Shown: in pieces, positions 2,288 through 46,366 of the stretch | Numbering within the stretch: the stretch's first letter is position 1 | How the letters are laid out: the number at the start of each line of letters is the position of its first letter | Source: a virus | Taxonomy: Duplodnaviria > Caudoviricetes | IMG/VR virus record: IMGVR_UViG_3300037400_002261 | Location: 43,286 to 107,285 of that record | Length of the DNA stretch: 64,000 bases | Reading direction: 5' to 3' (one strand) | Notes under the pieces: generated by a model | Told to the model about the DNA's origin: nothing | Seen by the model: only the letters and a program-made list of their open reading frames with translations | The model's database searches: none | Position numbers and translations under genes: made by a program

Positions 2288-3463
2288 ATGGCTTATAATA
2301 AAGAAACTGGAATGTATGAAGGGTTTATATATAAAATAACAAATAATATTAATGGTCATTTTTATATTGGACAAACTCGTACAACTGTTGAAGAAAGATT
2401 TTATAATCATACAAAAGATTATTCAATAAGTAAATATCAAAAATACGGTTTATACAAAGCTTTTAAAAAGTATGGCGTTGATAATTTTAGTGTTGATACA
2501 ATAGAAACTCATCAAGCATTTACACTTACAGAATTAAATAATATATTAAATGAAAGGGAAATGTTGTTAATAGCAGAAAATCGTAATATATATGGTAAAG
2601 ATTTTTTATATAATCATTCTCGTGGTGGGGACTATGATGGTTGTGCAACTGAAAATATACCTGTGATACAATATAATTATATAGGTGAAGAAATTAATAG
2701 ATTTGATTCTATTGTTGATGCTAAAAGAATCACTGGGGTTTCTGGTATTAGTGGAGTTATTAATAAAAAACCATAGAATTTATCTTCTGGTGGATATATT
2801 TGGAGAAAACAAAATGATCCTTTGACAAATGAAGAAATTCGTTTTATTATGATTCATTTTAATACAATGCCGATTAGATAGTATGGATATAATAATACAT
2901 TTATTAAACAATATGATTCAGTTAAAGAAGCTTCTGAATCTATTGCCAATGATAGATACAATAATAATGATATTGTATCACATATAAAAATGTGTTGTGA
3001 ACATAAAAGTAAAACGGCATACGGATATATATGGAGATATGAATTTGATAATTCTTTTGATGATGTAGATTATAAAAACTGTCAATTTGCAATTGAACAA
3101 AGAGAAAACGGCACTGGTAAATTACTTAATACGTTTATCTCTACTATAGAAGCAGAAAAAATAACTGGTGTTGATGATAGTATTATTTCACAATGTTGTA
3201 ATCATAATTTAGATTCAGCGGGTGGTTATTTGTGGAATAAAGTAGGGGATTATAATCCGAATATTCTTAAAACTATAACAATTAAACCAGTTGTTCAATT
3301 ATCAAAACAAGGTGAATATATAGCCACTTACGATTCTCCGACTTGTGCTCAAAATGCAACTGGTATTTATTCTAAAAGTATTAGCAGAGTATGTAGAGGC
3401 TTTTTAAAATCTACTGGTGGATATAATTGGCAATATTTATATGATTATTTAAAAATATTATAA
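2288..3463 (+). CDS. Free-standing GIY-YIG homing endonuclease with repeated NUMOD1-like DNA-binding modules (391 aa)
   Basis: GFIYKITN...FYIGQT motif. Track ORFs 2288..2776 and 2990..3463 share a frame and are joined through TAGs. Four 'V.Q....G..I..F.S...A....G......C....S.GGY.W' type modules. AAGGAGG RBS. Confidence 0.88.
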
Positions 3464-20529: not shown

Positions 20530-23500
20530 ATGGCCGATATTAAAGAATATATTATAAAAATAACGGCGAATGTTGATGATGCCAAATAGAAGTTAGATAG
20601 TTTGGCAAATTCTATGTCAAAAGTAAATCTTAATAATGGACTTGATTTAGATTTAAAAAAGTCTACAAGCGAAATTACTGGTTCTATAGGAAAAGTTGCT
20701 GAAGAAGTAGGAAAATTATAGAAAGCATTTGATAAACTAAATGCTGATAAAATTACTAGTGAAGTAAAAGATCTTTCAAATGATTTAAAAAGTTCTATTG
20801 ATTCAATGAAATCTTCATTCGAGGGTTTTCAAAAAACATTTGAAGGTTTAAGTGGTGCTGGAGATAAAGGTTTTGGTCAGATATTTAAAGATTTTTCTGA
20901 ACAAATGAAAGAAATGATAGATTCGTATAGAGAAGCTATTAGGGTTATTGATGGACTTAATAATGGAACTATTGCACCCAATCTTTAGGAAAAGGTAGAA
21001 GATGCTGTATAGAAAAATAATAATAGAACGAAGCAAAATGTGTAGAAATAGACCAATGCAATAACAGAAGCATTAAGAGAAAGTAGAACAAAAATAAATA
21101 ATGCTATTAAAGATTTTAATGATAATATTGATAGTATAACAGTTGCCCAAATTGGTTCATTTACTGATGAAAATGGTAAGCAAAAATTTGTTCCTGAAGA
21201 AGAATTAAGAAGAATGGAATTATATGTTTCCAATTTAATTGGAATAATTAAAAAAACAAAACATATCAAAGGTGTTGATCTTAATAAATTAATTTTTTCA
21301 AAAATTGGGATGTCTGAAGATAGCTTAAACGATATTAGAGATGACATACAGAGTAAAATCACCGCTTCTATTGAAAGACGGGAAACAAAAGCTGAATCTA
21401 TAATCAAAGAACAAAATGCAAAAGATAAAGGTGTTAAATAGCCAGTATCAGTCAATATTGATGTTGTTTTAGATGAGGCTTCTATATCAAATGATTCAAT
21501 AGATGCTATGGTTAATAGAATTCGTGAAGAAGTAGTATTTAGAGTTAATGAAAGAATCAAGAATCATCCAATAAAAATACCTATTAGCTTATCAACAGAA
21601 GAAGAAATAGTTAATGACGAAAAATTAACTGATAAACAACTTGAAAAAAAGACTGAAGAAAAATAGAACAAAAAGTTTGTTAAACAATTAACTGTTGAGG
21701 TTAGAGCTATTACTGATGGAATGCTCGATGATATTAACACAAAAATAAAAGAACTTAATAAAAAAATAACTTAGACAATTGATATTAAACTTCGACCAGT
21801 TTTATTTAGTGAATAGGAATTGGAAGATGTTGTGTTGCAAACAGAAGAAGATATTAGTGGTATTATTGACGGAAAACATGGTAAACGTGGTATACCAACT
21901 GATGCATCAAAATTAATATTATCTTCAAATACTTTTGATGAACAATCTCATGCTGTATTAGTTGATATTAGAGATATCGTAGGTAGAATTCTTGCTGCAA
22001 TAAGTGGAAACATTCCACCATCTGGTGGTCATCCGATGTCACCGACATCAAATATTCCTCCTACTCCACCTACTCCTCCTACTCCACCATCTGGTGGCGG
22101 TGGTACACCTCCAGTATCTCAACAGAAACCAATTAAAACTGTAACTATTAATAAACCAAATGTTGTGATGTAGAATTCTGGAAATGTTAATACTGGTAGA
22201 ACAATTGGTGTTACACCAAATTAGACACCATAGCAAGAAATTCCAAAAGGTGGTTCATCTTCTACTCCTACTCCAGTAACGGTTGTAGATAATGAGCCAA
22301 AGTAGAAAAAACCATTTTCGTTTGAAAAATATGCAAGATATTTAACAATTGGTAGATTATTAAATAAAGAAAGGGCTGGAGAATTAACTCAAAATGAAAT
22401 TGAATATGCAAAAAGTTATGGAAGGGAATTATTACAAAGAGCCGCAAATGCATTAGTATCTGATATAAAAGGGAAATCTATAGGCAATGAAAAAAATATA
22501 GTTGTTGGAGCTGCCAAAAGAAATTATGATAGATTTACTATTGCAAGAAATAATTTAATCGAAAGAGAAAATAAAAGAGAAGATTTATCAAATAAATTAT
22601 CATCGATTGGTTATTCTCCAAAACCTGTGATTAAAAGTTCTTCAGTAAAAGCGTTGGATTTTATTTTATCGAAACTCAATAATATAAAAAAAACGACAGA
22701 ACCATTATCTGAATCTTATAGAACTGGATTAAGTGATAGAAATTATTTTACTCAAACTGTTGGTGATAGTAATTTAGCATTTTGGGGAAGAGCAAATCAA
22801 AATATTGAGGATTTTCAAAATGAAGTATTTGATGTCTTTGTAAAAGGAAAAGATTCAATAGCAAAAATGAATACTAGAATTAATAAGCAATTTGAACGTG
22901 AAATGAATGCTACTTATCTTGTAAATTCTGGCATTGGCGGCGAAAAGGTTACACCATAGATAAAACGTCTTATTGATTATGATATTATAAATGAAGGTAG
23001 AGATCTTAAAGGGCAAAGATTAGCACAAAGACTTGCTGAAGAACATGAAACCCCAACAAGAATATCTGAAATGCGGGCAAATTTTATTAGAAAAAGAATG
23101 AGCGAATTATAGATGACACCATAGCAATTGGATGCCTTGAAAAAAGAAAAAGAAGAATTGTCAGCTATATATATGCCTGCTATTCTTGGTTCTAATGATG
23201 AAAAGTCTCCATTAAGTATGGAACTTTTAGCAATTGAGCAACGCTTAAAATATCTTAATGATACAATTGATAAAGTTGAAAATGACGCTGAAATAGTACG
23301 TTATAGAGGAAGTTCTGATGAAGATATAGTTAAAGAACAAATTCGTAGAGAACATATGGCTAGGAGAGTTTCATTAGTAAGGCAAACTTCTCCGTTAACA
23401 GATGATCAAAAAGGTGAACTTGATAAATATAGAAAAGAATTAATTGAAAAAGAAGCTGAAAAGATTGCTATGTCTGTTGTAAAAGAAGGTTTTGGAAATA

Positions 23501-26500
23501 ATATTTTCAAAACGTTTAATTATGGAACTGCAAAGTCTGATGTTAAAAAAGGCGGTAATAATAGTGATCAAAAGCGTATAAGAAAACTTGAAAGTTATGG
23601 TCTTGAAGTTGATGAAAAAACTGGAAGATTAATTTCATTTAAAACACCAGAAATTGCGAAAAAATGGGGTGTTGATGATTTAGAAGAAAGGCTTCTTGAA
23701 GTTGGTTCATATGGTGAGGAATAGTTAAAAAAACAACGTGATATTACTGAAGTGCTTTCTGAAAATGAAGAAGATTATAGGAAGTATATAGCTGCTTATG
23801 ATCGTCATAGGGCTGGAGAAGCAACCAAAGAAGATGAAGAAACTATTAAAATCTTAAAAGGTAAATTAGCCGAACACGCATTATATTTTGATAATCAAGA
23901 AAGAATAGATTAGATTATTTCAGAAAATATGGAATTAGAAAAAAGATTGAACAAAAAAGGAGCTACTAAAAAAGATAGAGATAAGTACAATCAAAATAAT
24001 TTAGAACTTAAATAGATTGCTCGAATTACTCCAGATAGGTTCTCAGAATTTGATGTATATCAAATGGCTCAACGACAAATTGGTAGAATTGATCATTCAA
24101 GAGATTTAGAAAAAGATATTATGGAAACTTATAGGAATGCTATGATATCAATGGTTAGTGGTGATACTATAAGAAAGATGAGTAAAAGCACATATAAAAA
24201 ACATTTATTAGCCATTTCTGAATCTGGCAAAGAAATAGGAAAATTAAGTAGTACATTACCAACTGTAATGGGTTCAAGAGATAGAAAAGGTATTTTTGTT
24301 TAGAGATTCGATACTGGATTGCCAGATTGGAGTTATTAGACAGATATTGAAAAAGAATAGCGTTCAAAAGCTTATAACAGATTGCAATATGCAAAGCGAC
24401 ATGCATTGGGATATGAAATAGGTAATGGTATTCGTGATATTAGTGGTAGATTAGTAAATAAAACAGAAATCCCAGTTGAAAATATGAAAGTCGCAAATCT
24501 TGGATTATCTCCTAAAACTGCTAGAGCATATGCTTCTTTACCAGCAATTCAAGATATCTCTGCTCCATATAAAGATGAACATGGAAGACCTATTTATGGG
24601 AAGAATGGCGAGACATTGTACAAACCAACGAATACAACCCCTGAATAGCTTAGAATGTTTTCTGATGTCCTTGGCAATGTTATTTCTGAATTAAATACTA
24701 CTATTGCTTCTCTTCCAACTGACGAAGCTGAAATTGCTAAATTAGCTGAAGATAGACTTAGTAAAGCTACTGTAGTTCCATGGTTAGAACGTATTGAGTT
24801 ATTAGATAAAGAAATCGATGAAAGGGAAGAATATAATAAAAAACTTGAAAGTGGAGAAATTCAGGGACAAAAACGTGCTACATATAGTCTTAAAAAAGAA
24901 AGAGATGCATTACAAAGATCAGTTGAACAATTAGAAGGAGGTGCTTATAGTTCTAAGTATAAAAAAGATAAAAAAACTGGCGAATGGGTTTTAACTGGTG
25001 GTGAAAAATTAATACAAGATAGAGAAGAACTTGCTAAATCTATATAGGATGAGTAGAAATTAATAACAGCTGTTTAGAAAGCAACTGGTATAAATGATGA
25101 AGCAGTTAGATTAATAGAAACCATAAAATGGGCCAGAGAAGAAAAACGAAAACTTGGATTACATACTATAAGTAAAGGTGAAGATAGTTAGTATGCTATT
25201 GCAAAATAGGATTATGACACAAAGAAAGGAATTTATGATAGAGCATAGACTACTATTAGAAATGGTGGAAGTGTTCCTGATATAAAAAATATTGAAGCGG
25301 AATATAAATAGGCAGAGGCTGCATATCAAAAGATATTAGGTGTTAGATTAATTGAAGCATGGGTGGAAAAAAATCTTGGTGGCAAAATATCAGAATTTAC
25401 ACCAGATAGTAATTATGCTGTTAGTACATTAGATGATGCTAATGCGTTATATGAGCAGTACGATGATATTATAAGAGAATCTACAGAAGCGTTAAGAAAA
25501 ATAATATCTAAAAAATCAATCAATGATTTATTATAGGATCTTGATGTTCTAACTGCTGACAAATATGGAGAAAAAATTAAAGCGAATCCTATTAGTGATA
25601 TGCTTGAAGAATTAAGGGAAATAAGAGAAAGACAAGAAGTTCTCCGTGGAGAAATAAGAGAACAGGAATATCAAATGTCAAGAACTGGAGAAGAATTACA
25701 GCCCATTAAAGAAGCTCGTCTTAAAAAGATTAGAGAAGATATTAAGAAGAAACGCACAGATGCAATTTCTATAAGAGATACTAATGTAAGATCAAAACAA
25801 ATTATTGATAGTATGATAAATGTATCTGATGTTATTGCTGCTGATGAGTAGATAAGAGCACAAGAAAAGGCTAATATAGAAGAAAAACAAAAAGAAATTG
25901 ATAGTATAATGGCAAAATCTACTGATGATAGAATTGCTGATATAACTGAAAGTTTTGCTAATCAAACTTCTGAAATATAGACATAGTTATCTGAAGAAAA
26001 CAAATTGTTAATTGAACAACGGAATGCAATTGTTAATGAATATGTCGAAAGTACAAGAGAATTAAAACAAAGAAGAACTGCATTTAATCAAGCTGATTTG
26101 GAATTAGAAGAAGCAGTTGATGAAAGAGATAAATTATTATCTGTAAAATCTAGAGAGGAAATATTAAGTGAAGATTCTGAATATCAAAGAATTCAGAATG
26201 ACATTAGTCAACTTGAAGAAGAAATTGCTAAATCTCCTGCTTCTGAAAGAAAAAAATTAAGATTAGAAAAATTAGGACCTTTAAAAGAACAACTTCAACA
26301 AAGAATTGAAGATATTAGATATGGTTATATTGACCCAATACAAGAATCCTTTGATGAGTTAAAAGATGCATTCGAAGTAAAGGGTATAAGAGGTGAAGAG
26401 CTTAGAAGAAAAGCAATTGCTTTTAAACAATTAGAGGGAGAAGGAAGAAATATTGGTGCAAGAGTTGATTGGTATGAAGAAGATACGATAAATGGTGCTT

Positions 26501-29500
26501 CTCCAATAGATTTTGCTGATTCTGTTATTAATGAGGAAGTAAATGCAAAACAAGAAGTTGTTGATCTTGCAAAAGAAGAATTGGAAATTGCTGCTCAAAG
26601 ATAGGAAATCGCAAGAAAAGCTTTAACTATTGCTTCAACAAGCACACCAGAACGTACTGAAATTGAAGCTGATTATAATGCTGCTACTAATAGGTATATT
26701 TCTTCAAAAACAAGATATGAATCAGTTGAAGAAAAATATTTAAAAGCTAAGAATAATTATGATAATGCATTAGAAAAGATTGCAAAAGGTGAAAACGTTG
26801 CAAAATTTGATAAAATAAAAATGGAATTTGAAAAAATATCTCCTGAGTATGACAGAGTTAAAGCACTTTATGAATCTTCTAAAGAAGCATATTTTAGATT
26901 TGGTGGATTATTAGATGCTATTAATGGGTCAAATATTGTACCAGAAATTGATGAAGCTGCTTCTCAATTTATGAGAACTCAGAGTTCGATTGAAAATCTT
27001 GAAAATGCATAGCATAGATTAATTGAAACTAGAAAAAGAGAAATAGAATTAGCAAAAAACGATAATAAATATATGGAATATTTGTATAATCAAGCTGGTA
27101 TTCCAGTACCTAAAGGAGCAAGAGTATATGATGAAAAAACAAAAGAAGCAATAAGAAGAAGAGATGCTGAAGAAAGAGAAAGAAAAAAAAGACAAGCTAA
27201 AGAACAAGAATAGATTGATACAGCAGCAATTAGTAGATGGCGTTTTGGACTTGGTGGTGTTGAAGAAGAAAAAATGAATGCAAGAAGAAAAGCTAGAGCT
27301 AATATAAAAGCTTCATCAACATAGAATAAGCCGAGAGAAATGTTCGATTGGCGTTTTGCAGATATGAACAAAGATCAAGCCGTTATTGCAAAATTAATTC
27401 AACGATTTGCTGTAAAAAAATATAGGACTGAAAGATAGGATAGATATTTAAAATCTCTTCAAATTCAGGCATAGAACATTGGCTTGAAAATTAATGCAAA
27501 AGGATATGTAGAGCCACTCGTTTCTAAAGAAGAATATGAAGCTAATACAGAAGCTCATCCTATTCCTAAATTTACTTAGCAAGAACTTATACAACGTGGG
27601 TTATTAACGGCAAGTAACAAATATAATTCGCAAAGCAGTTAGCAATCACAGCAATCTGGAAATCAACCTGATAATGTTTTTGAACCTGAAAAGAAACGTC
27701 AACAAGCACCAATGGAAGGTGTAGTTGATTATGGAACGGAAGAAGAATATTATCGTCAGATGGGAATGCAAGTACAAGATATTGAAAGTGAAGTAGATAA
27801 TATTGGTGAAAATATCAATGCAAACACAAGAAAAGGAAATACTCAACAAGGAAATGATTTTATAAGTTATGCTACTGGTAAATTAAATAAATTGAATCTT
27901 GGAGCACATAAGAATGAAGCTGTAGCATTATGGAATTCATTAAAGCCTACAATATCAAGTCGTGAAACTGCTGATACAGTTATTGCTACTATTACTTCAA
28001 AACTCAAGGAATGGAGTTCAAAAGATAATCAATCACAAAAAGAAACTTCTGCTTAGAAAAGACAAGAAAATGATTTTGTAAATCAGGCTGCTATAAAATT
28101 AAATAAATTATAGCTTGGTGGGTTTAAAGAACAAGCTGTTGCGCTTTGGAATTCTTTAAAACCGTCTATTATAGATCAGGAATCTGCGGATAATGTTGTT
28201 GCTGTTATTTCAAATCAATTAAAAGAATTTAATGAAAAAAATGGCCCACAAGGGTTTGTTGAATATGCTAAAGGTAAATTAAATAAATTAGATTTAGGTA
28301 ATTATAAGGAACAAGCTGTTGGTATATGGAATTCTTTAAAACCATCTATTATAGACTAGCAGTCAGCAGATAATGTGATATCAGCTATTACTTCTAAATT
28401 GTAGGAATGGAAATCGAATGATGAAAAAGCACCTCAAGCCACTCCTGGATCTGGTCAAGCAAGCGATTCTTTGGAAAATGTTGCAACAGAAGGTCAAGCC
28501 GCTGCTTCTGCTGAATCTCAAGTAGCAGAAAATGGATAGGCTGCTGCATAGGCATTGGAAAATATTGCATCTATGGGTGATCGTTTTAAATCTTTAAAAG
28601 ATCAATAGGTTGAAAATGAAGTTCTTACAATGGAAGAAACGCCAAATAACAATAGTGTAGATCAATAGTCAGACACTATTGAAAATCAAATTAAATTATA
28701 TGATAACCTTGGTAGAAAAATTGATGATAATAAAGCCAAAGTGTTATAGGGAACGAAAGCTATAGATGCATAGAATCAAGGCATTCTTACATTATTCCAT
28801 TCGTCAGATGATGTTTTTGATAAATTTGATCCATAGAAAATGGGTGTATCTGGTGCTAAGTTTGGTAAAGGTGCATATTTTAGTACAACTCCCCAAAAAA
28901 TATATGGCAATAAAATGACAGAATGGTATGCATATGTAAATAAAATATTTGACATAATGTATACTTAGCTGAATAATGAAGAAATCGAAAATATAATTTC
29001 AACTTGGTATAAAAATTTTTCAGAAGAAATAATTGCAAATGCAAGAAAAGCTTTATCAACAAGGGATTATAAATCATTATATAGCGATGAATTACCCAAA
29101 AGAGATAATGAAGTGTTATTACGAGATAAGAAAATTAAATATATAGCTGGTTCGCCATTTTATGATGATTAGGATTTTATTGACAAAGCAATTAAAGGTC
29201 TTGGATATGATGCTCTTCAAGTACCAGGTGGAGGTATTGTTGTTTTTAATTTAGACAATATTATTCGTGCAAACAATTTAGTACATGATACAATTGATGA
29301 ATTATAGTAGTTAGTAGAAAATCGTCCTATTAATAGTAAAAGTGGCATGTATATGATTCCTGCAACGATTGATGTAAATGATTTATCAAATGAAAGTCCG
29401 ATTTCATCGGGTACTGTGCCACAAAATGTTGGTTCTATTACAGATAGTTTACACGATATGTAGATGGCTGGAAGTAGTGCTACAGAATCTATTGTTTCAG

Positions 29501-32500
29501 GTATGTCTGATATTAGTGATAATTCTGAACAAGCTATTACATCAGTTAAACGTGTAGTAGAAGCATTTAGAGGAGTAAATGAAGCTAGTGATTCTAATGG
29601 GTATTGGTCATCTGATTACGATGAGGCAAAATGGTATGCAGAATATGGCGAAAATGTTAAAGAATTATATAAAGGTAAAATCAAATTTGATAAAGCTTAC
29701 TATACAGATAATTTAGGTAGAGATAATAATAATGTGAGATATTTAGGTGCTGGTTTTGATGATATATCCAAATAGTTAATAGAATAGGATAGAATATAGA
29801 AAGAAGCACATGATATAATACAATCTGCATTTTAGAAACATGGTATTGATATTGATTTTGGTACATTTACTAGTGGTTTATCTGGAGATCTTGAAGATAG
29901 TTTAAGAAGTGTTGAAGATTTATTCTAGGGTTAGTTAGACACTATATTAAATGAATGTAAAGAATAGATTAAAATATTTAATGAAGCTGGTTTAAAAATA
30001 TAGCAATTATTCACTGAAAGTAATGGGCGATATTTTCAAGGATAGACAGATGATGTTAGTAAGGCAATTTTAGAATCTGGGTTATTTGACGGGGAAATAT
30101 TTGATAGAATATAGGATACTACAAATGGACTTACAACTCATTATAGACCAATTGATGAAAGTCAAATTTTTGATAAGATTTTGTTAGAATCAAATCAAAA
30201 TCCTGTTTTATCGGATGATATTGTAACATTGTATCGTGGAGTAGGTGCAAAAGGTACAAATGGTGCGAAGTCATTGTATCATGATGAAGCGGGGACATTC
30301 TTTACTGATAATTTTGAAGCCGCATTATAGTATGCAGAAGAACTTGAAAATGATATTTATAAGCTGTAGATATCAAGGTCAAAATTAAATGAGATGCTGA
30401 ATGTTGATGCTTTAGGATCTTAGTATACAGATATATCATTAGATGGTGTAATATAGACAACCGATGAAATTGCAGAAAAAACAAAAGCGGATGGATAGAA
30501 ATTAGGCGTTGTATTCTCTAATGTTAGAGATGGAATAGAGTCAGCTATAACAAGCGTTTCTATCTTTTCAGAGGAGTTGTTGGACTCCGCTCAAAAAATG
30601 TCTGATACAGAAATATTATATTAGCTTGAAAAAATAGATCCAGAGTTAGCTAAATAGTATCGAGATGAAGGTGGTATCTCCGATAAAACTCCAGTTTCAA
30701 CTACTACTCTTCCACTCCAAGAACAAGACGAAAAACAACAAGAAATTGGTTCTTCTGCTGAATAGTCAGCTTCTTAGGTTCAAGCTGCCGAATCAAAAAA
30801 ACAATCTGCAATTGAACAAACAACAGAAAAGTTAAAAGAACAATCTTAGGTTGAAAGCCAAGTAGTAAAAAATGCTAATCGTCCAGAAAAATATCGTGAA
30901 TATGATTTAAGTACTCTTCCAGAGAAAGACTTATATAAGCATTTAGGGTATTCTCGTACTGCATTACGTTCAAACAGATCTAAAGAAAAAGATGCACAAT
31001 GGAGATATTATAAGAGTGAGTTAGAGCAAGAATTAACACGTAGAGAATTACCATTAGAAAGAGGTAAATCAAAACCAGAATATTCAGATAGAGATATATC
31101 ATTAGAAGCAGATAGTGTTGTTCGATTAGCTGCATCTGAAAGTAATTTAAGTGATCAAACACAAATTGCTAATCAAGAATTATCAAGGTAGGGAGAATTA
31201 CTTGCAGAAAATTCATCAATACAACAACAATAGCCAGAGCAAGATCAAAGTCATATTGTTGAAGGTTTATAGTAGAAAACAAAAGCATAGAGAGAATATA
31301 ATGATGCGATAGCCGCATAGCCATCTGCTCCAGATAACGAATATGGTCCAGAAGCAGCTGCTATTGCAAAAGAAGTTGAAAAAAGCAAGTATAAAAGTTA
31401 GTCTTAGAGGGCAATTCCTGTTATAAATCCAGAAGAAATAGCAATGCCTATGTCTTCTCCTGTTGTTAGTGGAATAGCTGCCCAAGAATCTTCAACAGAA
31501 TAGATTGCTCAAAATATGTCTGAAGCTACTGCTAGTGCTAGTAGTCTTGCTGGTGCATTAGGCGATGTTGCGCAAAAATCAAGTGAAGTAGCCAATAATA
31601 CTGCATAGGCAAAAGATAATATTGCATTGACAGATGCTCAGAAATCTTCCGCAGAAAATGCAACTTAGTTTACAGGTGAAGAACAAGGTTCATTTAGTAG
31701 TTTAGCGAGTGAAATTAGAACAGATGTTATTGCAGCTATTGAAGAAAAGAATAGAGCATTATAGGAAGAAGCAAATCTTGTTGCAAAATTAACATCGGGC
31801 GAAGGAAATGATTTTACTACTCTTGCTAGTAAAATAAAGGAAATAGCTGAATAGGCTGAGAGAATAAAGATTGAATTTGATTTTAGCAATATTGATAAAC
31901 TTGATAAAAACTTTATTTAGCAATTTAAAGAACTTGCTAAAATTATTAGTGAAGTCGATCCTAGTAAATTTATTGCTGTTGGTGAAGCGTTTAAAGGACT
32001 TAATATTGATAAAAGTCTTGGTGATAGTTTTGCTTCTCTTGCTGATGGTATTACCGCTTTTAATGAAAAAGTTTCTGATGAGGGAATTGGTGGTAATAAT
32101 TTTAATGATTTAATGAATTTAATTAATCGTATTTCTGATGCTGGCAAACATATTTCTGACATGGCAGAAGTTTTAAAGGCAAGCGGAAAAGCTGGTCGTG
32201 GCGTATTTGGAATGAAATATTCCAAAGATTTCGATACAGAAGAATAGATGCGTGAATATATGGATTTAATGAAATATCTTTCTAATCCAAGCAATATGGT
32301 TAAATCATAGAAATTAACACTTCAAGGATTAGAAGGTGGTAGCATTTAGGCTAAAGATATGATATGGGCGCAGGATTATTTGCAAAAATTAGATCAAGCA
32401 AGAGAACTTCATAGAATATTAGAAGAAAATAATCAATTAGAAGAATCTGGAAGAAAAGCACTTGATAGAACGTGGGAAAATTTTGGTATCAATCAAGCGT

Positions 32501-35500
32501 CTTCTTTGGATGCTGCCAGAAGAGAGATTAATGATGCAATAGATGAAACGTTAAATAATTACAATAAGCTTGCGAAAAATAATCCAGTATTAGTAGAAGA
32601 ATTTTCAAAAGGTTATGACCAATTAGGTGAAGCTATAAAATCAGCAAATGCCGAACTTAGAAATGATGCAGATATAAAAAAATATAAATAGAATATTAGA
32701 AGCGCATATGATGAATTTAATAAATTTAGCAAAATGAATCGTGTAGCTTTTGGAAAAGATTAGAGCATGAAGATTTTAGATACTGAGGGGCAGAGTTTCA
32801 ACTCTGATAGTGCGAAAGAATTTATATCTAACTATGTAAAAGATAATTATAAAAAAGTATTAAAAGATGTAACACAATCCACCAAGGTTGTAGATGGTGA
32901 TGAGATGTCTGTATTTACTGCGCAAGTACAAGATGCTAATGGGGTTGTTCAGACATTAAAATTCTCATGGTCTGAAGTAACAGAATAGATTCGTATGTCT
33001 GCTAATGAAGTAGATTAGAGCAAAACTGGTATTGGTGGTATTATTGATTCTATTACTGGAAAAGTAAAACAACTTTCAACATATTGGACTGCTCAGTTAT
33101 TTAATCCATATAGACTTATTGGATATGTAAAACAAATAATGAACGTGGTAAAAGAATATGATACAGCAATGATGGAAATTAGAAAAGTATCAACAGAATC
33201 TGCTAAGTCTTTAGATAACCTTAGATTAGATAGTTTTTCGATGGGAGAACAAGTCGGTTCTACTGGGAAAGATATACTTAGCAGTGTTGCTGCTTGGAAA
33301 CGTCTCGGTAAAACATTTGAAGAAGCACAAGAAGCTGCGGTAGCATCCAACTGGTTATTAAATGTTTCTGAATTTACTAATATAGATGATGCTACAAAAT
33401 CTCTTGTATCAATGACATAGGCTTTTGATGATTTAAGTTATGAAAGTGCTATTGATAAATTAAATGGTGTTGGTGATGCATTTAGTTCATCAACAGACCA
33501 AATTGCTTCTGGTATGTAGAATGTTGCTTCTGTATTACAAGTTGCTGGAAATGATGTAGATCAAAGTATTGCATTATTAGCGGCGGCTAATGACGTTACA
33601 TAGGATATGAGTAAAGCATCTATGGGTGTTCGTACAGTTGCTCTTCGAATGGCTGGTACACAAGAAGCAAAATAGCAATTGGAAGAATTGGGTGAAGATA
33701 CTAGTGATTTTATTGTTCAAACTCAATCAAAAGTTGATGCTCAAGTAAGAAAATATACTGCTACTGCTGCTAATCCAAATGGTATTAGTGTACTTGAAGA
33801 TAATGGAAGATTAAGAGATACTTATTCAGTATTGCTTGATATAGCAAAAGTTTGGGATTAGATTGTAGAAAAAGATAATAAGTCTGGAACAAATACATCA
33901 AATGCTTTACTTGAATTGCTTGCAGGTAAAACTCGTTCTAATGTCCTTGCTTCTATTCTTCAAGCTCCAGATATTTTAGAGAGTGCATATGAAACTTCAA
34001 AAAATTCAGCTGGTATTGGATAGAAAGAGCTTGACATTTATCTTGATTCTGTCGAAGCAAAGTCAAAACAATTAACTAATAATTTTCATGAATTGGCAAA
34101 TATTACAATTAATTCAGATGGTCTTAAAACAATGCTCGATATAATTAACTCTATTCTTTCGGCTGTTAATTCTCTTGCAAAATCATTTGGAGCGTTAAAA
34201 ACTGTAATTGGTGGAATTGCTAGTTTTGCTTTATAGAAAAACGGTTTAGGTATTTTAAATTATGATATAAAAAAGGGTGCAGCAATAAATGGTTAGAGTT
34301 TCGTTAGTACTTTTATAAAATCAATTAAAACTGGTTTTGTTAAAGATGAAACAAGTTATTTATTTAAAGACATTTTAAAACCAGATTAGGGATTTGAGGA
34401 TCAAATTAGGACAATATGGGGAGGAAGTATAGATTCATTTACTAAATCATTTAGTGATGCTAATTTTGCCAATTTTATTAATAATTATGATAAAGCGAAA
34501 TTAGCTACAATGTCAGCGCAACAAGTATAGACTGAATATAATGCTGCACTTACGGCAACAGGCAATACATTAGGCAAAGTTGGGACAAATCTTGTATCAT
34601 TTGTAGGAAACATGTTAACTGTAATGGCTGTTGTAAAAGGTATTGAATTATTATTTAAAGGTATTTATACAATAGCTACATGGGATGAGAATTTAATCAA
34701 AAAAGGACAAGAAGCAAAGAAAAATATTGACGATATAAATAAATCATATACAGAAGCTAACAAATTAGTGGAAGATTTTGATGAAAAAGAGTATCGTAAG
34801 CTACAATCAAAAAAAGATAATGAAACTATTTCAACAGAAGAATATGAAAGATTGGCATCTATCAATAATCGACTTGCTGAAACGTTTCCGTCTCTAGTAT
34901 CTGGTTTTGATGAACAAGGTAATGCAATTATTAACATGGGGGATAAAGCTGGTGACGCTTCAAACAAATTAAACGAACTATTAGAACAAGAAAGAGAACT
35001 TGCTAATTTCCAAGTATCTTAGAATTTAAAAGATGTTGCTGCTGGAGTGAAAACTAGATCAAAATAGATAGCTAATGATATTATAAAATAGAATAATGTA
35101 ATAGATTCATTAGGTCCAATATCTGAATAGATTGGGAATATAAAAGATGAATTATCTGGCAGTCTTAGTGCATTCAATGTTCAACTTGGAAGTAATGCTG
35201 ATGATTTATTAAAATATGATATGAGTACAGCAGCCATGTTATATCAAACAGCTTTAAACGATGCTGGAATTTTTACAAAGACACCAATAATTGAACCAGA
35301 AGTTGGGAAATATTATATAGAACCAGTTCTTGATGATGTAACAAATGAGTAGATCGAAGATGCACAAGGAAGATTTCTTAATATGCTAGAAAAAGCTAAT
35401 TTGGATAGTACAATATCTGAAAAATATTTGGATGCATTAAAAATTAAGGCGATAGATGAAAAAGAATTAAAAGCAGAATGGAATTCAATTGTTCCATCAA

Positions 35501-38500
35501 TTATATCATCTATGGAACTTTATGATGAATTCGATAATATTGGCGAAGATTTTCAGAAGGTTATTAGAGATGGTATAGCTAAATTAGATATTACTAGTCT
35601 TTCAACTGATAGACAAAATGAATTTGCGAGTGATCCAAGAGCGTTTATAAGAAAAATGTTTTTAGATCCTATTTCTGATGGTATGTTGAATTCTAAAGGT
35701 ACTATAAAATAGGAAAAACTAAAACTTTTTAATTAGCTTTTATCTTTTGATGGTAATGATTTAAAAAATAGTGATTATACTAATCAAATAAATCAAATTA
35801 TATCTCAAATTACAGATATTCCAAATAAATAGGCTGAAATTCGTATTGCATTAGGATTTACATATGAAGATAAATAGGGGAACGAGATTTGGAATGTAGA
35901 CGATGCTAGAGAAAAATTATTTGAAAATATTGGTGGTTCGATTGATTATGTAGATGGCATCAAAAGAATTAATAATACTATTGGAGGTATTTCATTTGAA
36001 GATTTTTCAACATTAGGTCAATCTGATTTTGAAGCCATTGATTATGCTTTAAAAAATATGAAAATACCTGATGATATTGAACTTTCGTGGGAAAAGCTCC
36101 TTAATATTATATAGAAAGCAAAAGAGGAAATGAAAAATTCTCCGAAGGTTGAAAAAGATGGAAGCCTTGCATCACTTTTTAATGATGATAAATACCAATC
36201 AGATAGTGAAAAGTATGAAAAATCTCTTTCTTCACTTACTTCTGCCCTTGAAACATTACGTACAGAGGGTGAATTAAGTAAAGATGCTACCAAAGAATTA
36301 ATAGAGCAATTTCCAGAGTTGGCTTCAAAAATAGATGATACTGGAAGAATTACAGAAGATTTATTGAGTAATGCTATGGCAGATGAACTTGCTAATTGGG
36401 TTAAATTAATAAAAGATGCAATGAAAGAAGCATCACCAGAAGAGTAGAAAGGTATGCAAAAATATATAGATACATTAATAGCAAGTTATGGAGAATTGGG
36501 AATATCTGCTGAAAAAGCAAAAGAACAAGTATACAAATCGCTTGTAGATACTGATGCTTTAGGTGGCACAACTAATTAGATGGCATAGGTACAAGATATA
36601 ATATCTGCGCTTGAAGGAAAATATAGAAAAGATTTAAATTGGGAAATTGTATGGACACTTGCAGTAAATGATATGTTATCTCCAGATCTTGAATCTACAT
36701 TTAATGCATATGATGGTTTAGAACTTGAATGGAATATAAATATTAATGAAAGAAAGTTATAGGATATTCAAAGAAAATTAGGTTTAGGTCAAGCAACCAA
36801 AGGTCGAATATAGGCTGATTAGTCAAAAAAAGATGCATCTGGTCATATTCTTACTGAATAGGATTATGCTACTCTTGGAAGGAATCTAGCATAGGAAGTT
36901 AAATATAATAAGGATGCAGAAAAAATTGCATTTGATGAATTTACTGAAGCTGAAAGAAAAGCTAATGAAAATCCTTTACTCAATGAAAACCTAGTTAATT
37001 ATCAAAATAAGATGAAAGCATATGAAGAATCAAGAACAGCTACTGCTAATGCTGAAACAGAAGAACTTCAAAACACTGTAAAACAATATCAGTCTGAATC
37101 TGAAATATTACAAAACGCATATCAGAATTTACAAAATGAATCTAAAGAACTTGATAATGAAATAACTGAACGTACTAATCTTGGTCTTGAAGCGACTGCT
37201 AATCAAATTCAAAACAGAATCCAAGGTTCGCAAGCGCAAATTGAATCTCTTGATGCTCAAATTCTCGCAAAGCAAGAAGAAGCTAATAAATTTGCAAGTG
37301 ATACCAGATTTGGAACTGATAGTCAGTTTTATAAAGATGCTGTTTCTGCCCAAGATGATCTTCGTAGTCAACAAATAGAACTTGAAAATAAAATTCTTGA
37401 TGACAATCTTCTTCTTAATGGTGGAATGAGAATTAATGAACTTTCAGCCGAACTTACTGATTTACAATCGGTTGCAACAGATGTTCAAGATGCAATGTCG
37501 TTTAGAGAGGCTCGTGGAATAAAACCAACTGTAAAAGATTATCAGAAACTTACTAAGAATAGTAAAGATTAGATTAAGAATATTAAAGAACAAAATGATA
37601 AATTAAAAGACCAACAAAGATATCTTGTTGATAATTATGGAGAAGTTGCTAGAACATCTTAGAGATATCGTGATATTCAATCACAAATTGATAGTAACAA
37701 TGCTTCTCTCCGTTCTCTCGCATAGAGTCAATTCGAATGGGGAAATCAAATGGCACTTGGTTCTATTTAGAATATTATGGATTCTTTCAGTGCTGCACAG
37801 TCTGCTATGGGTAAAGGTCATTTAGATGATACTTCTACATTATTGAGTCTTATTGATGCAAATCGTAATTATGCAGAAGCATTAATGACAACTACAACTG
37901 GCACATATGTTGATGCATAGGCTATGGCTGAATTAGCGCAAGAACAAGGTGAGCTTACTATCTCGATGATTGATGCCGAAAAAGCCGCTGAAGCTATGAA
38001 CTATCAAAAGAATGAAAGTGAAATTTTATCACTTGCTAAATCTATTGATCCAACTATCAATTCTATTGAAGACCTTAATAGAGAAATTGCACAAAATCCA
38101 GATTCACCACAATGGTCTGAGATACTCAACCTTCAAGATGCTAATAAAGATATTCAAAGTACAATTGATAATCTCCAAGCAATGAAAGAGCAAATGCTTG
38201 CTACTACTTCTGCTCTTGGAAGATATCAAATGGCACAATCTACAGCAAATATGTCAGACCCAATGCAGACTATTCGTAATGGAATGGAAAATGCTTAGAA
38301 ACTTTATGATTAGGGTTGGTGGGGAATGGATGATTTCACTACCTATGCTGATTTATTGGCAACTAATGAATAGCTTGCTAATGGTACTGCTGTTGATTTC
38401 TTTGAAGAGAATAAGAAAGCGAGAAGTAAATATCTTACAGAAGATCGAAAAGGTGTTGATAAATGGGTCGATGATATGATCGCTAAATCAGAAGAACTTG

Positions 38501-41500
38501 GAACTAGCTGGGCAAAATTGACTGATAAAGGATACAAATTTGACATAGATAGTATGGAAGAGTTTGCTGATGCTATGGGTACTTCGACTGAGTTTGCTGA
38601 ATATATGCTTATGGCGATGAAGGATGCTGCTTATGATGTTGATATATCTCGTATTGGTGATCGTTATGCAGAAACATTTGATAAAATTGTTGGAACAGAA
38701 GCTAATGCTGGATAGCAAATTTCGAATTTATTAAATGATATGGAAGCTACTGCTTCTGCTGGTGGAGATATTACTCAAGCTGCTGAATCTGCTGGATAGG
38801 CTATTTAGAGGATGCATGATGCAGGAGCAAGTGATGCTACAATTAATAAACTTGTTGAAACATATAATGAACTTGGTGAATTGAATGGTTTCCGTATTGA
38901 CCCGAAAACATTAGAGATTACCACTAATGTGGATAAATCTGAATTAGAAGTAACTGAAAAAGAAGCTGAGAAACCTATTGATAAATGGATTAAGATTAAA
39001 ACTAAATATGATATTTCCGAAGAAGATATCACAAACACAAATAATGCAATTCAAAGGGCATTTTAGGGAAATAAAGCAAATGCTGAATAGTATTTAAAAG
39101 ATTCTGGTATAAGTGATAATACTGCTGCTGAGTTATTTGAGATTGATTTTGAAGATGGGGAATATAAAATTGAAACAGCTGATGCAGAAGCAGCTATTGA
39201 AAATCTTGCAGTTAAAATTGGATTAATAAATGATAAATCTGAAATTACAAATGAGACTGCCCAAGCACTTATTGCTACTCTTGCTGAACTTGGTCTTATT
39301 GATATTGAAACAGATGTTGATATAAATGATATTAAAGAAGCTGAAGAAAATATTGATAATCTTCACAAGAAGTCTGAGAAACCAGTTAAAATTAAAACTG
39401 AAATAGAAAGTGAATAGAATCGTGATACAAGTGCTTATTATTCTTCTATTGAACCATTATCTCGCAGAGTTCAATCTGAGCATCAATAGAATTTAGATAC
39501 GAGTGCTCACTATACTATGCCAGAAGCTGGTGAATTAGAACAACATCGTAGAATTGTTTATCAAATTCAAACAGAACTTGCAGACGGTGGAACTACGATT
39601 AATAAACTTGAGAATTTAACTGACCAAGAAATTGTGGAACGTTTTAATGTCGAAGGTGCTGAAGAAATTCAAATGGTTCGTGATACTATATCTGAAATAT
39701 CATCATCTGAGGGTTATGATCTTGTTGTGAAAATAGATCAAGAATAGCTTGATTCTATAACAGAAGCATTAAACCCAACTGAACAAGAACCAATTATTCC
39801 AGAAGTTGATAATACTCAAGCACTTGATGCTATAGAAGAAGTGTCTGAAAAAGTAGAAGAACTTGCTTAGAGAATGTCTGAGTTGAAACTTACAGTAGAT
39901 AATGGTAATGGTATAGAAGAAGGTGGGTCTGCATCAATAGAATTAGAAACACCAGATAAAACAACATCATCTGGTTCATCGACTTAGGAATAGGTTGTAA
40001 CTCCTACTGCTATTAACTATGCTGATAATATGGTTATTAGTGCTCAAGCCGTAGTAGATAATGTTGATACTTCACAATATGATGGTATACAACTTGATGA
40101 TAAAGAAGCACAAGTAAATGTAAAAGCTGATACATCTGAAGCTGAAGGTGAAATTAATACGTTTACAAGTAATCCATTTACTGCAATTGTTAATTTTATC
40201 ACTGGTAAAAAAGCCGATACTCCCGAAGAATCATCACAAAGTTCAGAAACAATTACTATGAATTATGAACCTGGTTCAACTGGTGAAGTTGAAGGTGCAA
40301 TAGATAACGTTAAGGGTTATGCAGAAAGTAATCCAGCAGAAATACCAATAAATGGAAATAATGATGATGCAAAAGCAAGTGCTGATGAAGCTGAATCATA
40401 TGCTAGTGGCAAAACTCCGCAAATGAGAATTACTGGTAATGCTTCGGCTGCATTAGGTTCAGCTGATGCTGCTGTAAGTGTAATTAATGCTAAAACAGCA
40501 CAAATTAAAGTATCTGCTGATACATCTACGCTTGTGAATAGTGTTAGTAATGCTCTTTCTAATAGGACATTTACTGCTAATGTAGTAGCAAATATAACTG
40601 GTACGCTGATGAATGTTGCTGTTTAGAAACCAAGTGCTTCTGCTCCAGTTAAAGGTGATTCTGGAGCAAAAGATGCGCCATTTTATACTGGTACTCTCCT
40701 CTCTCATGCTCGTGCAACTGGTACATTAAAAGATTTTGATGATTATATTATTGGTGGTAAAGCACACGCAAATGGTGATGTTACTATTCCTCAAGATGAA
40801 GATTCATTAGTAAATGAACTCGGTACAGAATCAATTATAAGGGATGGTATTTGGAGATTAATTCCAGGTGGAATGCATGTAGAACATTTGAAAAAGGGAG
40901 ATATTGTTCTGAACCATTTGTAGACTCGTGATCTTATTGAAGACGGGAAAGCATTTGGTAATGGTAAACTTATAGGTAATGCATTTGCTAAAGGTACTGC
41001 ATTTAATGGAATGCCAGCACATGCTACTAAACGAGACTCAGAAGCTCATAGCAATGGCGATAGTTCAAGAGTAAATCCTGCTCGTCAACATGTTGGAACT
41101 TTACCTCAATCTACTGGTACTGGAAATCTTGGTAAAACAATAGGAGATGCTGGCAATCAAGCACAGGGTGCTGGTCAAGATATTAAAGACGCAGCTGAAA
41201 ACACTGAAACCGCTCTTGATAGATTCAAGAAATGGGCAGACTCACTCTTCGACTGGATTGAAGTCCGTATGGAACGTCTGCAACATTCTATTGATAAGTC
41301 AACAGCATAGGCTGAACTTGCAAGAACATTCTAGAAGAAGAATTCACATATTGAAGACGCAATGACAGTTCTTCAAGGTCGCAATACTAAAGCTGAACAG
41401 AAACAAGTCACGAAAGAAATAAAAGAAGAAAAAGCTGCTGCAAAGAAAGCGGGAGCAAATCTTAAAAAGACCACTTATGGTAATATAGATATGAATAATC

Positions 41501-44500
41501 GCCAGACGATTACTTGGGATAATAAGAGTCTTAAGAAGAATAAGAAAGCACTTCAATCTCTCGATCCAGATGCAAAGAAGAATTGGAAACAATATTCTAA
41601 AGACCTTAAGGGTACTACTTCTACTGTATTTGGTGCGTCAAGTACATATAAGTTTGACGGCAAATCTATAGATATTGCTTTTAGTCCGATGCTTCAAACA
41701 GATAAGGGTGCTGAGATGTTAACTCAAGATACCATAGATAAATACATTAGCACTCTTATTAAAAATGCAAATGGAGATACTTCTAAACTGATAGAACTCG
41801 ATGTTGAGGGTGCTGATGTCGGCGGTAAGAGAATTAAAGGTATTCTTGCCGATGTTGGTAAGTCTGCACGAAAAACAGCTGAACAAATGCATTATGTTGG
41901 ATCTTTTGGCTCTATAGAAATGGCTAAACAAGAACGTCAATCTCTCAAGGATCAAATGACTGGTAAGGTTAAACAAGATGAGCAAGGTGCTACTCGTTAT
42001 TATAAACAAGCTAATAATGTACAGAATAAAGCAATAAATGAGGGTGTTCTTTCTGCTGACAAGATTGCTGAACTTGTTAAGTTAATAAAGAATGGTAAAA
42101 TTGATATTGAAGAATATAAAGCTATAAAACATACTGAAAATGGAAAAGAAGTTGAAGAAACTCCAGAATCTGAATTTATTGCAGCTTATAAAAACTGGTA
42201 TGATAAAGCTCAAGAAATGGAACTTCAATATTATGAAGACCGTCAGTCTCTTATTGAGATGGAGCAAACTCAGCTTGATAATATTACTGAAGAGTTTGAT
42301 AGTCGTAGTGATTTATTTGAATCAAGGTAGTCAAGGATTGATTCTGAAAAACAATTAAGTCTTGCTAATGGAGAAGATCCGAGATCTAAATCAATTAAAC
42401 AAAATGTAAGCAAATAGTTAGCACAACAAGACTTTTTGAGAAATAATCTTGATGAGGAAGCTTATGCTTATAAACAAGAAATGGAAGATGCGATAAAAGC
42501 ATTTGGAAAAGATAGTAATCAATATCGTTAGGCATAGGCTCAGTATAATGAAATTATTTAGCGTAAAAATGAAGCTGATTTAAAATATATTGAAATGCAA
42601 AAAGATTATGAAAAAGAACGCCTTGACTTTATTCAAAAAAGATATGAAACTGATGTGAATTATGCTGAATCTGTAAAAGCAACATCAGAATCTCTTACTT
42701 CTTTATATAGAGCACAGGGTAAGGCAGAAGACAGTAAAGATATAAAAAAGACTTATAATAAATAGATAGATTAGCAGGAAAAAGTCACTAGTCTTCTTTC
42801 AGAAGAAATGGAAAATTATAGAACTGAATTAAAACGTGCTAAAAAGATTTATGGCGAAGGTAGTGACGAATATAAAGAAGCACTTACAACATATAAGGGA
42901 ATGAGTAAGGCTTTAAATGAAAGCAAAGAAGCTACCATTCAATTAAAGCGTGACCTTATGGAACTTGATATTACTGTTATTGGATATGGTATTGATAGAC
43001 TTCAGCATAAAGTTGGATAGATGGGTTCTATAACAGATCTTATTGCAAAACGTGGAAAACGAGCCAACGATTCTACTTCTGGTGTAAAAGAATCGGATTA
43101 TACAAATCAAATTAGTATTAATAATGACATCAAAAAGAAATTACAAGAAAGAATTGATGCATTACGAGAAGAACAAAAAGGTTTAGATGAAAATAGTCAA
43201 GCATATATGGATCTTGAAAATAGAATTTGGGCTGATAGTGACGCAATGATTGACCTTATGTCTCGTAATGAAGATTTGGCTCAACAAGTCCGAGAACTTC
43301 GTTGGAAACCGTTTAATGAACTTTCTGATAAAATCGATGACGCTATTGGTGACTATGACCACCTTATATCTCTTATGAACGAACAATCATTCTTTGATGA
43401 TTTTGGTGATGGATATAAATTAACAATTGATGGTCTTAGCGCACTTGCTCTGTATGGCGAATAGATTGATGCTAATGAAAGAAAGATTGCTCTGTATCGG
43501 GAAGGTTTAAAAGCACTTTCTGAAGAATATAAGAATCGTAATATTGGCGAAGAACAATATATTCAGTAGTCAAGAGAATTTAAGGGAGTTATTCAAAGTT
43601 CTGCTTCTGCTATTAAACAGGAACGTGAGCAAATAATAGCACTTTATAAGACTCAAATGACCAATGAAGCTAATGCTCTTAAGAAAAATATTGATGCTTA
43701 TAAGGAATTGCTAAATCGTAAAAAGGGGTACTACGATTATGATAGACAATTAAGTGATAAGAATAAGAATATCCAAATGCTTGAACGTGAACTTCGTGCA
43801 TTAGAAGGTGTTGCTGGTGCTGAAGCTGCCGCTGAAAGAGCTAAAATTGAAGCAGATCTTTATGAAGCAAAACGTGATAGAGATGATACTGTACAAGAGC
43901 ATACATATAATCTTCGCACACAAGGTCTTGATGATTTAGAGAAAGATATTGATGAAACGCTTGATAGAAATCTGAGAGCAGTTGAAGCAAGCACATCTGT
44001 TTAGGATTAGGTTGTATCTGATATGTTAGGCAAAGTATTACTTAATTACAATACCGCTTACGAAGGTGCTGGTGGCATAAATGAAGTGATTGGTTCTGCT
44101 GGGACAAAGACAACTGAAACTACTACAAAACAAACGGAAGACAATAATAAGATGCTTAATGAAACTCGTAAAAAATATGCAACAGATGTTCAATTAATGA
44201 AAAACGAACTTGACTCATTGATGGCTAAAAATGCCGCCAATAATACTGAGCAATATAAAGCTACCGATAAAATGCTAACAGATACAAAAACTGATTATAA
44301 TACTGTCTATGGCAATATTCAACAATTAATAACAGAGACTGGAACTAAAGTGGGTACGGAAGCGGAAACTTCTATGGGAAAAATGAAAGAAACTATTTCC
44401 ACTGCCATGAAAACAACAGAAGAAGGTATTGATAAGTGGATTGAAAAGAATAAAGATAAAGGATTTACAATTGAAACTAAACTTATAGAAACTGGAAACG

Positions 44501-45462
44501 AAGGTAAAACAGACGGAGAAACAGACAGATGGCGTAATGCCGCTAATCCAGATAATGGCGGTGGAACTAAAAGTGCTAGCGGTGGAGGTACTAAAGGCGG
44601 TTCTACTGGAGGTGGTACTAAAGCTAGTGCTAATGCTGGTGGTGGTGCTAAAAAGGATACTAAAGATACTAAGAATGCTGGAGGTGCTAAACCTGCTGCA
44701 ACTGGTGGTGGTGATAAAAAAGATACGGAAGTTAAAACTGTTGCGAGTAATACAAAATCCGTTGATGCTGTTATTAAATCTTTATCTAGTAGAAGCAAAA
44801 CATTAACAGAAGCAGAAAAGAAAGCACATTCTGGTTTATGGGAATATGTCGCAAAGAATTATGGAAAATCAATCACTGGTAAAGGAATTATTGAATTAGC
44901 TGATGCGCTTGGTGTATATGTTTCTGCTACTTCTAGAAAAGCAAATAAACCTACTAGTGTAGAAAAGATTACAGTATTAGATGCTTTAAAACGTTATGAT
45001 AAGACTACATTAAAGACTGGTATTTCATCTGCGATTGGCATTGGTTTAAAGACTGGTGTTTCATCTGCTATTAATAAGAAAGGTTATGCAAAAGGAACTC
45101 TTGGTACTAAGCAAGATGAACTTAACTGGACTCATGATGGTGAAATCATCCGCATGGCAGATGGGGCAATTCTCAGACAGTTACCGCAAGGTACGCAAGT
45201 AATACCAAGACTTGAAAGTCAGAACCTTATGAAGTGGGCATAGATGGACCCGAATAAGTGGACACATGAAGGAATTAATTTGGAAGTAGTTAAGTCAACT
45301 CCGAATCAGGAAATTAATCCTGTGCTTAACTATTCTCCGACTATAAACGGAACTGGATTAAACGAACAACAAGTATTAGATCTTCTTAAGAAAGATCGTG
45401 AAGATGCATTCAGAGACTTTACTAATCGTATTAGAAAAGACCTTAGAATGTCAGGTAGGTAA
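20530..45462 (+). CDS. Giant tape measure/polyvalent protein (~8,310 aa)
   Basis: GGGAGG RBS, ATG20530. More than 30 track ORFs from 20806 to 45244 share frame +1 and end in TAG; gaps spot-checked show no TAA/TGA. TP901-type tape measure core at ~33100-34100 ('YDTAMMEIRKVS...IDKLNGVG...AGNDVDQSIALL'). C-terminal 'GYAKGT...GE.I...G..VIP' motif. Directly before Dit. Confidence 0.88.
27847..28422 (+). repeat. Three tandem ~60-aa helical repeats in the giant protein
   Basis: 'F..YA.GKLNKL.LG..K..AVA(L/I)WNSLKP(T/S)I.....AD.V...I...L.E(W/F)' three times; TGGAATTC(A/T)TTAAA(A/G)CC recurs in the DNA. Confidence 0.85.
28780..30600 (+). other. Three tandem ADP-ribosyltransferase-like (ART-PolyVal-type) domains inside the tape measure protein
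   Basis: Domain 1: 'TLFHSS...FDKFD...GAKFGKGAYFST....YG...GYDAL....IVVFN..NI'. Domain 2: 'AFRG...YWSSD...A..YA...TDDV...FDG.IF..I.D...ESQI'. Domain 3: 'TLYRG...GTFFTDN...A..YA...TTDEI...GVVF.NVRDG'. Confidence 0.7.
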
Positions 45463-45523: not shown

Positions 45524-46366
45524 ATGAGTGGATTTATATATAGAAATCAATCTACTGAAAATATTATTGGACGTAGATTAATATTATGCAGTTTTGACGG
45601 TGCGGTCAGCTCTATCACTGGTGTACAGCGTCAAAACCAAATTGGGGAAGTGACTATCACTCGGCATATCCCCAATGAATATGGTGTGATTAATTCAAAT
45701 CTTCAATTTCAATACTCTCTCACTCTCGACCCTTGCTATAAGGACGCAGCACCGTTTATTACAAACGAAGAACAAATTGTAATTGAAAGGTGGTTAACTT
45801 CACCAAAATTTTCGAGTGATTTATATATTATTAATGACAACGATGAAATAACATGTACATATTGCGGGAAATTTACTGAAACAACTTGGATACCTAGTCG
45901 TGAAGGATTTTCGGGTGTAACTTTTACATTTGAAAATAATTCCGCTTACGCAAAGGAACATAGAGAATTTACATTTAGTAGTGATACAAACAATTGGAGT
46001 TTTGTATTAGATTGTGATTCGGATGAACTGGAAGAATATGTTTATCCTGTTATTACATTTATAAATCCTAATAGTACAACAGAAATAAAAATTACAAATC
46101 ATACAGACATTGGTGAAATAAATAATAACACTCTTAACGTTGAAAAAGATATTCCTCTTATTATGGATTGCCGACATTGTATTTTAACAAATGGTGTGAC
46201 AAATGGTACGTTTTCATTTGATGATGTTGGTTGGGCTGATGTTGGAAATATCTATTGGCCCAGATTGATACCTGGGGAAAATGAAATCTGGATTGATAAA
46301 CCATGCACAATAAAAGTCTCGTATGATGTAGTAAGAAAGAAAGTGGGTGGATGGTTAAATGATTGA
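45524..46366 (+). CDS. Distal tail protein (Dit)
   Basis: Intact 280-aa ORF after the tape measure gene; 'I.RWLT', 'YPVI.F' and 'WPRLIPGENEI' motifs typical of Siphoviridae Dit. Confidence 0.8.
   Translation: MSGFIYRNQSTENIIGRRLILCSFDGAVSSITGVQRQNQIGEVTITRHIPNEYGVINSNLQFQYSLTLDPCYKDAAPFITNEEQIVIERWLTSPKFSSDLYIINDNDEITCTYCGKFTETTWIPSREGFSGVTFTFENNSAYAKEHREFTFSSDTNNWSFVLDCDSDELEEYVYPVITFINPNSTTEIKITNHTDIGEINNNTLNVEKDIPLIMDCRHCILTNGVTNGTFSFDDVGWADVGNIYWPRLIPGENEIWIDKPCTIKVSYDVVRKKVGGWLND

Follow-up and report, generated by a model that had tools for sequence, protein, structure and literature searches.

T4 Alt, an ADP-ribosyltransferase (ART) of the R-S-E clade, is packaged in the phage head and injected; ARTs of this clade carry an Arg on strand 1, an S-T-S motif on strand 2 and Q/E-x-E before strand 5. 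Tape measures exit the tail before the DNA, and those of mycobacteriophage, lactococcal phages and T5 hold peptidoglycan hydrolase motifs. The ART-PolyVal family (PF18760; Tox-ART-HYD2 clade) occurs in the polyvalent proteins of phages and conjugative elements, in which a single polypeptide delivered with the virion combines several effector domains and, in most cases, a zincin-like processing peptidase; one protein may hold several copies of ART-PolyVal (Iyer et al. 2017, PMC5512222). AcrIF11 (PDB 6KYF), a phage/plasmid ART, ADP-ribosylates Csy1 (bioRxiv 10.1101/2024.08.26.609590). The searchable literature places ART-PolyVal in polyvalent proteins, and no mention of the family in a tape measure was found there. 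Here we describe a 64,000-nt stretch (hereafter the window) of a caudoviral genome, positions 43,286 to 107,285 of the 107-kb virus record IMGVR_UViG_3300037400_002261, in which a giant tape measure protein carries an ART-PolyVal domain followed by two further candidate domains. The features in question are:

28780..29274 (+), aa 2751-2915: domain 1, ART-PolyVal; active-site residues His2757 (nt 28798-28800), Tyr2783 (nt 28876-28878) and Asp2894 (nt 29209-29211)
29551..30180 (+), aa 3008-3217: domain 2, a probable divergent ART-PolyVal-derived domain with a helical insert of ~125 aa; key residues Arg3014 (nt 29569), Tyr3025/Ser3027 and Asp3187 (nt 30088)
30217..30582 (+), aa 3230-3351: domain 3, a short module akin to the N-terminal half of domain 2; key residues Arg3236, Phe3257/Thr3259 and, at the Asp position, Leu3325
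32491..37173 (+): tape-measure core in the same open reading frame (ORF), with PhageMin_Tail at nt 33238-33873

Domain 1 is a genuine ART-PolyVal domain with an intact H-Y-D set. Profile comparison with hhalign matched it to ART-PolyVal at 99.8% (E 7e-28), and at 97.6% (E 3.5e-12) with its own subfamily taken out and the canonical rows alone retained. An exhaustive HMMER search of 1.84 billion representatives recovered true relatives of domain 1 that are themselves PF18760 matches (P0016 at 42 bits), and the subfamily profile reaches P0021 over its full length (66.5 bits) and P0037 (54.9 bits). Conversely, jackhmmer seeded with P0021, a bona fide member (66.5 bits), recruits domain 1 full-length (residues 3-177). 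The A1 profile search matches P0017, P0018 and P0022-P0036 were discarded because they align to the flanks of P0006 and not to the domain. His2757, Tyr2783 and Asp2894 sit in the H-Y-D columns of the family (strands 1, 2 and 5, respectively), and the catalytic residues are kept in the tape-measure-borne relatives. The AlphaFold2 model of domain 1 has a pLDDT of 76.4, and its fold matches in the PDB and BFVD are almost all ARTs, among them PARP, diphtheria toxin, ParT, AcrIF11 and PolyVal ARTs. Model and profiles alike uphold the ART fold that the first-pass annotation had read from the motifs of this domain. Domain 1 is predicted to be an NAD+-using enzyme that modifies a host macromolecule.

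In structure, domain 1 is best matched within a pre-ejectosome protein of cyanophage A4, by the domain at residues 1418-1613 (PDB 9k3a chain B). In the passages searched, the structure paper (PMC12002296) names no ART domain; an ART-like domain may thus have gone unremarked in this packaged ejection protein.

The candidate domains and the tape-measure core lie in a single frame, 20530..45462 (+), whose 8,310 codons are open once TAG is read as Gln: it holds 164 TAG, no TGA and a single terminal TAA, against 257-499 TAA and 81-650 TGA in the off-frames. Read with the standard code, the same stretch breaks up into short ORFs. Opposite the TAG codons, standard-code homologs most commonly carry Gln (13/55), and their residue profile at these sites resembles that opposite CAA/CAG. 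A phage-encoded tRNA with a CUA anticodon is the likely suppressor behind this recoding. The reading in which several genes are divided by true TAG stops was discarded on account of this tRNA(CUA), of homologs that align through the TAG sites, and of standard-code relatives in which a single ORF encodes both an ART and a tape-measure domain.

Family and position both identify the 8,310-aa product as a tape measure. It scores 57.7 bits with PF10145 (PhageMin_Tail), whose cutoff is 33.2, residues 3988-5548 match phrog_4211, 'tail length tape measure protein' (E=5e-63), and the gene lies between tail-chaperone-sized and distal tail genes. Portal and head genes lie 5' of it, and a DUF6558 tail protein followed by a minor tail/fibre gene lies 3'. 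In its relatives, the flanking genes belong to the SPbeta families YomU, YomW and YomO, and the source is a TAG-to-Gln recoded, SPbeta-like long-tailed phage. The surrounding features are:

Virus record G000 39098-39172, ~4.1 kb upstream of window position 1: tRNA with anticodon CUA (ARAGORN label tRNA-Pyl), adjoining tRNA-Thr and tRNA-Asn
45524..46366 (+): downstream tail protein, DUF6558 (phage tail protein N-terminal domain), 26 bits against a cutoff of 24.1
46359-50651: minor tail/fibre gene, 1,430 aa, phrog_6211 minor tail protein

For a protein in the tape-measure position, 8,310 aa is an exceptional length. The island with the three candidate domains (residues 2751-3351) is N-terminal to the ruler core by ~700-1,250 residues, the phrog_4211 match beginning at aa 3988. 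Across the whole protein, Pfam and PHROGs matched only the core (aa 3988-5548) and, weakly, a 'baseplate hub' family at aa 20-249; they returned no known effector family besides that of the island, in which one effector domain is clear and a second probable. The ~6,000 residues without a match may contain further cargo. A homing endonuclease gene (GIY-YIG/HNH-type PHROG matches), at window 2288-3463, separates the portal gene from the head gene that follows.

The fusion of ART-PolyVal to a tape-measure domain recurs, including in gut phages that use the standard code. In L007, from a human-gut metagenome, ART-PolyVal and PhageMin_Tail are both above their Pfam cutoffs within one 1,901-aa standard-code ORF, and the same pair is found in L006. 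Similarly, the standard-code proteins P0010 and P0011 combine a domain-1-type module with PhageMin_Tail. The earlier proposal of an ART domain embedded in the tape measure is borne out for domain 1. Another relative, L011, joins GNAT, ART-PolyVal and LPD38 and is a polyvalent protein of the classical type. The closest relative, L005, is another TAG-recoded giant frame; for its domain 1, tblastn gives 70% identity and blastp, over a longer segment of 318 aa, 56%, and its tape-measure core is 70% identical. It has no domains 2 and 3: at the site where the window has 1,106 aa that include them, the corresponding stretch of L005 is a low-complexity helix of 655 aa. Domains 2 and 3 therefore form a variable insertion, dispensable to the ruler, and within the sample examined all three modules occur together in this window only. 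A scan of IMG/VR with the three-domain region gave no relatives, nor did a PDB sequence search (E<=10) or tblastn of domain 1 and of the domain 2 relative against 50,697 deposited phages give a match; a GTDB genome scan with the domain 1 family returned no prophage relative.

The motifs quoted in the first-pass annotation are all in frame where it placed them: FH, YFST, YG and GYD in domain 1; FRG, YWSS, an A..YA-like motif and FDG in domain 2; YRG, FFTD, A..YA and GVVF in domain 3. Its claim of three ART-like domains fares unevenly, being solid for domain 1, backed mainly by the C-terminal block in domain 2 and marginal in domain 3.

Domain 2 is probably a divergent derivative of ART-PolyVal, with Arg for His on strand 1 and the strand-5 Asp kept; the evidence is a profile-profile comparison made with a two-sequence family. 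Its sole relative among the 1.84 billion representatives is P0005 (L001:4537-5271), a standard-code protein that also contains PhageMin_Tail; a further search seeded with P0005 returned P0005 alone. L001:4537-5271 keeps the YRG, YWTD and YDG motifs of domain 2, and the frame just 5' of the called start of P0005 reads LYRG...SYWTD...AEYFA. At ~30% overall identity, both Arg3014 and Asp3187 are conserved. Against the 65-row ART-PolyVal profile, the domain 2 family gave an hhalign probability of 73.9% (E 2.8e-5, score 36.4), aligned at the G-Y-D-G...N-Q-I strands; against the canonical-only profile it gave 75.1%, and the merged C-terminal block reached 88-89%. The null scores were at most 16.7 for 33 other windows of the same protein, 16.8 for 60 column shuffles (mean 12.1, standard deviation 1.9) and 13.5 for reversed sequences. 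The helical insert of domain 2 (29755-30080) matches phrog_25038, a family of unknown function (E 3.5e-5).

It is possible, though rather unlikely, that domain 1 is the sole ART and that the other two are accessory modules unrelated to it, such as spacers or chaperone- or wall-binding units, with ART-like motifs by chance. Both domains are missed by the domain 1-family hidden Markov model (HMM) and by the deep ART-PolyVal HMM, and Pfam and PHROGs assign them to no ART family at E<=10. Shallow profiles gave hhalign probabilities of 2.4% and 0.1%, the signal appearing only with the 58-65-row ART-PolyVal profile, and the best conserved block of the domain 2 family, GRDNN..RYLG.G, has no ART-PolyVal counterpart. 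Against these misses, the deep profile aligns the C-terminal block of the domain 2 family with the catalytic strands at 75-89%, well over all controls, and the weak match of the N-terminal block is collinear, at the correct profile positions 39-75.

Neither domain 2 nor domain 3 has the His-Tyr-Asp set, domain 2 carrying Arg3014, Tyr3025/Ser3027 and Asp3187 instead; they are therefore at most derivatives of ART-PolyVal and not typical members. On strand 2, domain 2 reads YWSS and domain 3 FFTD. The first-pass annotation had called both Arg-type, and the strand-1 Arg is indeed present in each, as in T4 Alt. Taken as membership of the R-S-E clade (Alt/VIP2), this label is not supported. The R-S-E families (Alt/VIP2/C3-like) gave no Pfam match at E<=10, no conserved Q/E-x-E was detectable, and, since domain 2 reads D-G-E and its relative D-G-I, the domain 2 family has no conserved Glu. 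The only significant similarity of domain 2 is to the C-terminus of the H-Y-D family ART-PolyVal.

Domain 3 resembles the N-terminal half of domain 2, matching the domain 2 family in hhalign at 23% (E 9e-4). The series of strand-1, strand-2 and helix motifs common to the two domains, a pattern defined post hoc, occurs at only those two sites in the 8,310 aa, with 0.001 expected in shuffles. No relatives of domain 3 were found among the 1.84 billion representatives. Leu3325 aligns with the Asp of domain 2 and of its relative L001h. Judged from its sequence, the ART nature of domain 3 is doubtful, and the module is probably a degenerate, catalytically inactive copy. The first-pass annotation had envisaged a battery of three active ARTs (His-type in domain 1, Arg-type in domains 2 and 3), delivered together and possibly directed against release factor 1. 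In all three domains, strand 1 does offer a His or an Arg and strand 2 an aromatic-Ser/Thr motif, in the correct order, and the Asp is retained in domain 2. Nevertheless, this scenario is very unlikely: domain 3 has Leu at the Asp position and no significant ART profile match, the R-S-E families do not match, the nearest relative, L005, manages without domains 2 and 3, and the recoding is accounted for by the phage tRNA(CUA).

The explanation that we consider the best, and to which we give about an even chance, is that the tape measure carries an effector island, made of an ART-PolyVal domain (domain 1), its divergent descendant (domain 2) and a shortened, Asp-less copy (domain 3), that is ejected into the host. 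Domain 1 would act as an H-Y-D, Tox-ART-HYD2-type ADP-ribosyltransferase using NAD+ on a host macromolecule. Domain 2 would be a descendant of the same fold in which the strand-1 His became Arg, the strand-5 Asp was kept and a large helical insert was gained, and could be either an enzyme of altered specificity or a pseudo-enzyme. Domain 3 would be a truncated version of the domain 2 template, with the Asp lost and probably without catalytic activity. That the tape measure delivers the island can reasonably be inferred from established phage biology: since tape measures exit before the DNA, the three domains could arrive at the envelope or in the cytoplasm of the cell while no phage gene is yet expressed. 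It would then act in the cell ahead of phage transcription, like T4 Alt by another route.

Several results weigh against this explanation. On domain 1, PF18760 scores only 19.6 bits (E=0.0016), under its cutoff of 31.2, and two members of the domain 1 family, P0006 and P0015, have Gln in place of the Asp, so that the acid is not strictly needed within the subfamily. The high score of the domain 2 family is mostly contributed by the relative L001h (34-37), the window's domain 2 by itself scoring 22; its N-terminal block matches the ART profile weakly (score 19-22, 6-12%), and the single-sequence AlphaFold2 model of the domain 2 relative is unusable (pLDDT 41.8). Domain 3 is near noise against ART-PolyVal (2.7-4.9%, score 18-20 at the strand-2 motif, with a length-matched null maximum of 16.6). 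Furthermore, Pfam and PHROGs detected no processing peptidase in the 8,310-aa protein, and three folded domains of 20-25 kDa are, from what is established for siphovirus tails, hard to fit in the lumen of the tail tube. This last point favours an island that is real without being an injected effector: cleaved off in tail assembly, acting on phage or envelope parts outside the cytoplasm, or persisting as an evolutionary relic. Such a fate is improbable, given that the catalytic residues of domain 1 are intact and conserved across the tape-measure-borne relatives, that cyanophage A4 packages an ejection protein with the same fold (9k3a_B), and that NAD+ is cytoplasmic.

A bolder extension of the effector-island explanation, and an unlikely one, is that domain 2 and its single metagenomic relative form a new Arg-Ser/Thr-Asp branch of ART-PolyVal, active on another substrate than domain 1, with the tape measure serving as a swappable vehicle that brings cytoplasm-acting enzymes in ahead of the DNA.

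The relatives also showed features of their own. A group I intron (L006:5449-5833; Rfam 63.4 bits) lies exactly at the end of the L006 tape-measure ORF, at PhageMin_Tail profile position ~123 of 201, and P0005 and P0010 stop at the same profile position (compare L002:14932 and L001:7101). This suggests a common intron site in the tape-measure gene; at that site, no intron was found at threshold in L001 or L002. A second group I intron (L002:8265-8566; 77.2 bits) adjoins the end of the tyrosine-integrase gene, which in this standard-code relative is situated within the tail module.

Compared with the described systems, domain 1 shares with ART-PolyVal the motif series, the His/Tyr/Asp residues, the ART fold and a very large, virion-associated, multidomain carrier. 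Unlike in polyvalent proteins, this carrier is a tape measure in which no zincin-like processing peptidase was detected; domain 2 differs from the family by Arg for His, and domain 3 by the missing Asp as well. AcrIF11 is a free expressed protein, whereas domain 1 is embedded in a virion protein, and no sequence similarity between them was detected. With T4 Alt, the island would share the concept of a virion-delivered ART acting before phage gene expression, although the ART clade is another and the route would be the tape measure rather than the head. As in hydrolase-bearing tape measures, a globular enzymatic module sits within a helical ruler and is presumably ejected along with it; those modules act on the cell wall, whereas an NAD+-dependent ART implies a cytoplasmic site.

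ART-PolyVal domains are predicted to enter with the phage DNA, and their carriers have been regarded as head-packaged or N4-type virion proteins. Their repeated occurrence in tape measures, including those of standard-code gut phages, points to the ruler as a carrier of NAD+-dependent enzymes that act in the cytoplasm. If the ruler carries such cargo, at least part of the tape measure must reach the cytoplasm. The combination of one conserved module with a variable pair offers a testable system for the host process that is disabled in the first seconds of infection.

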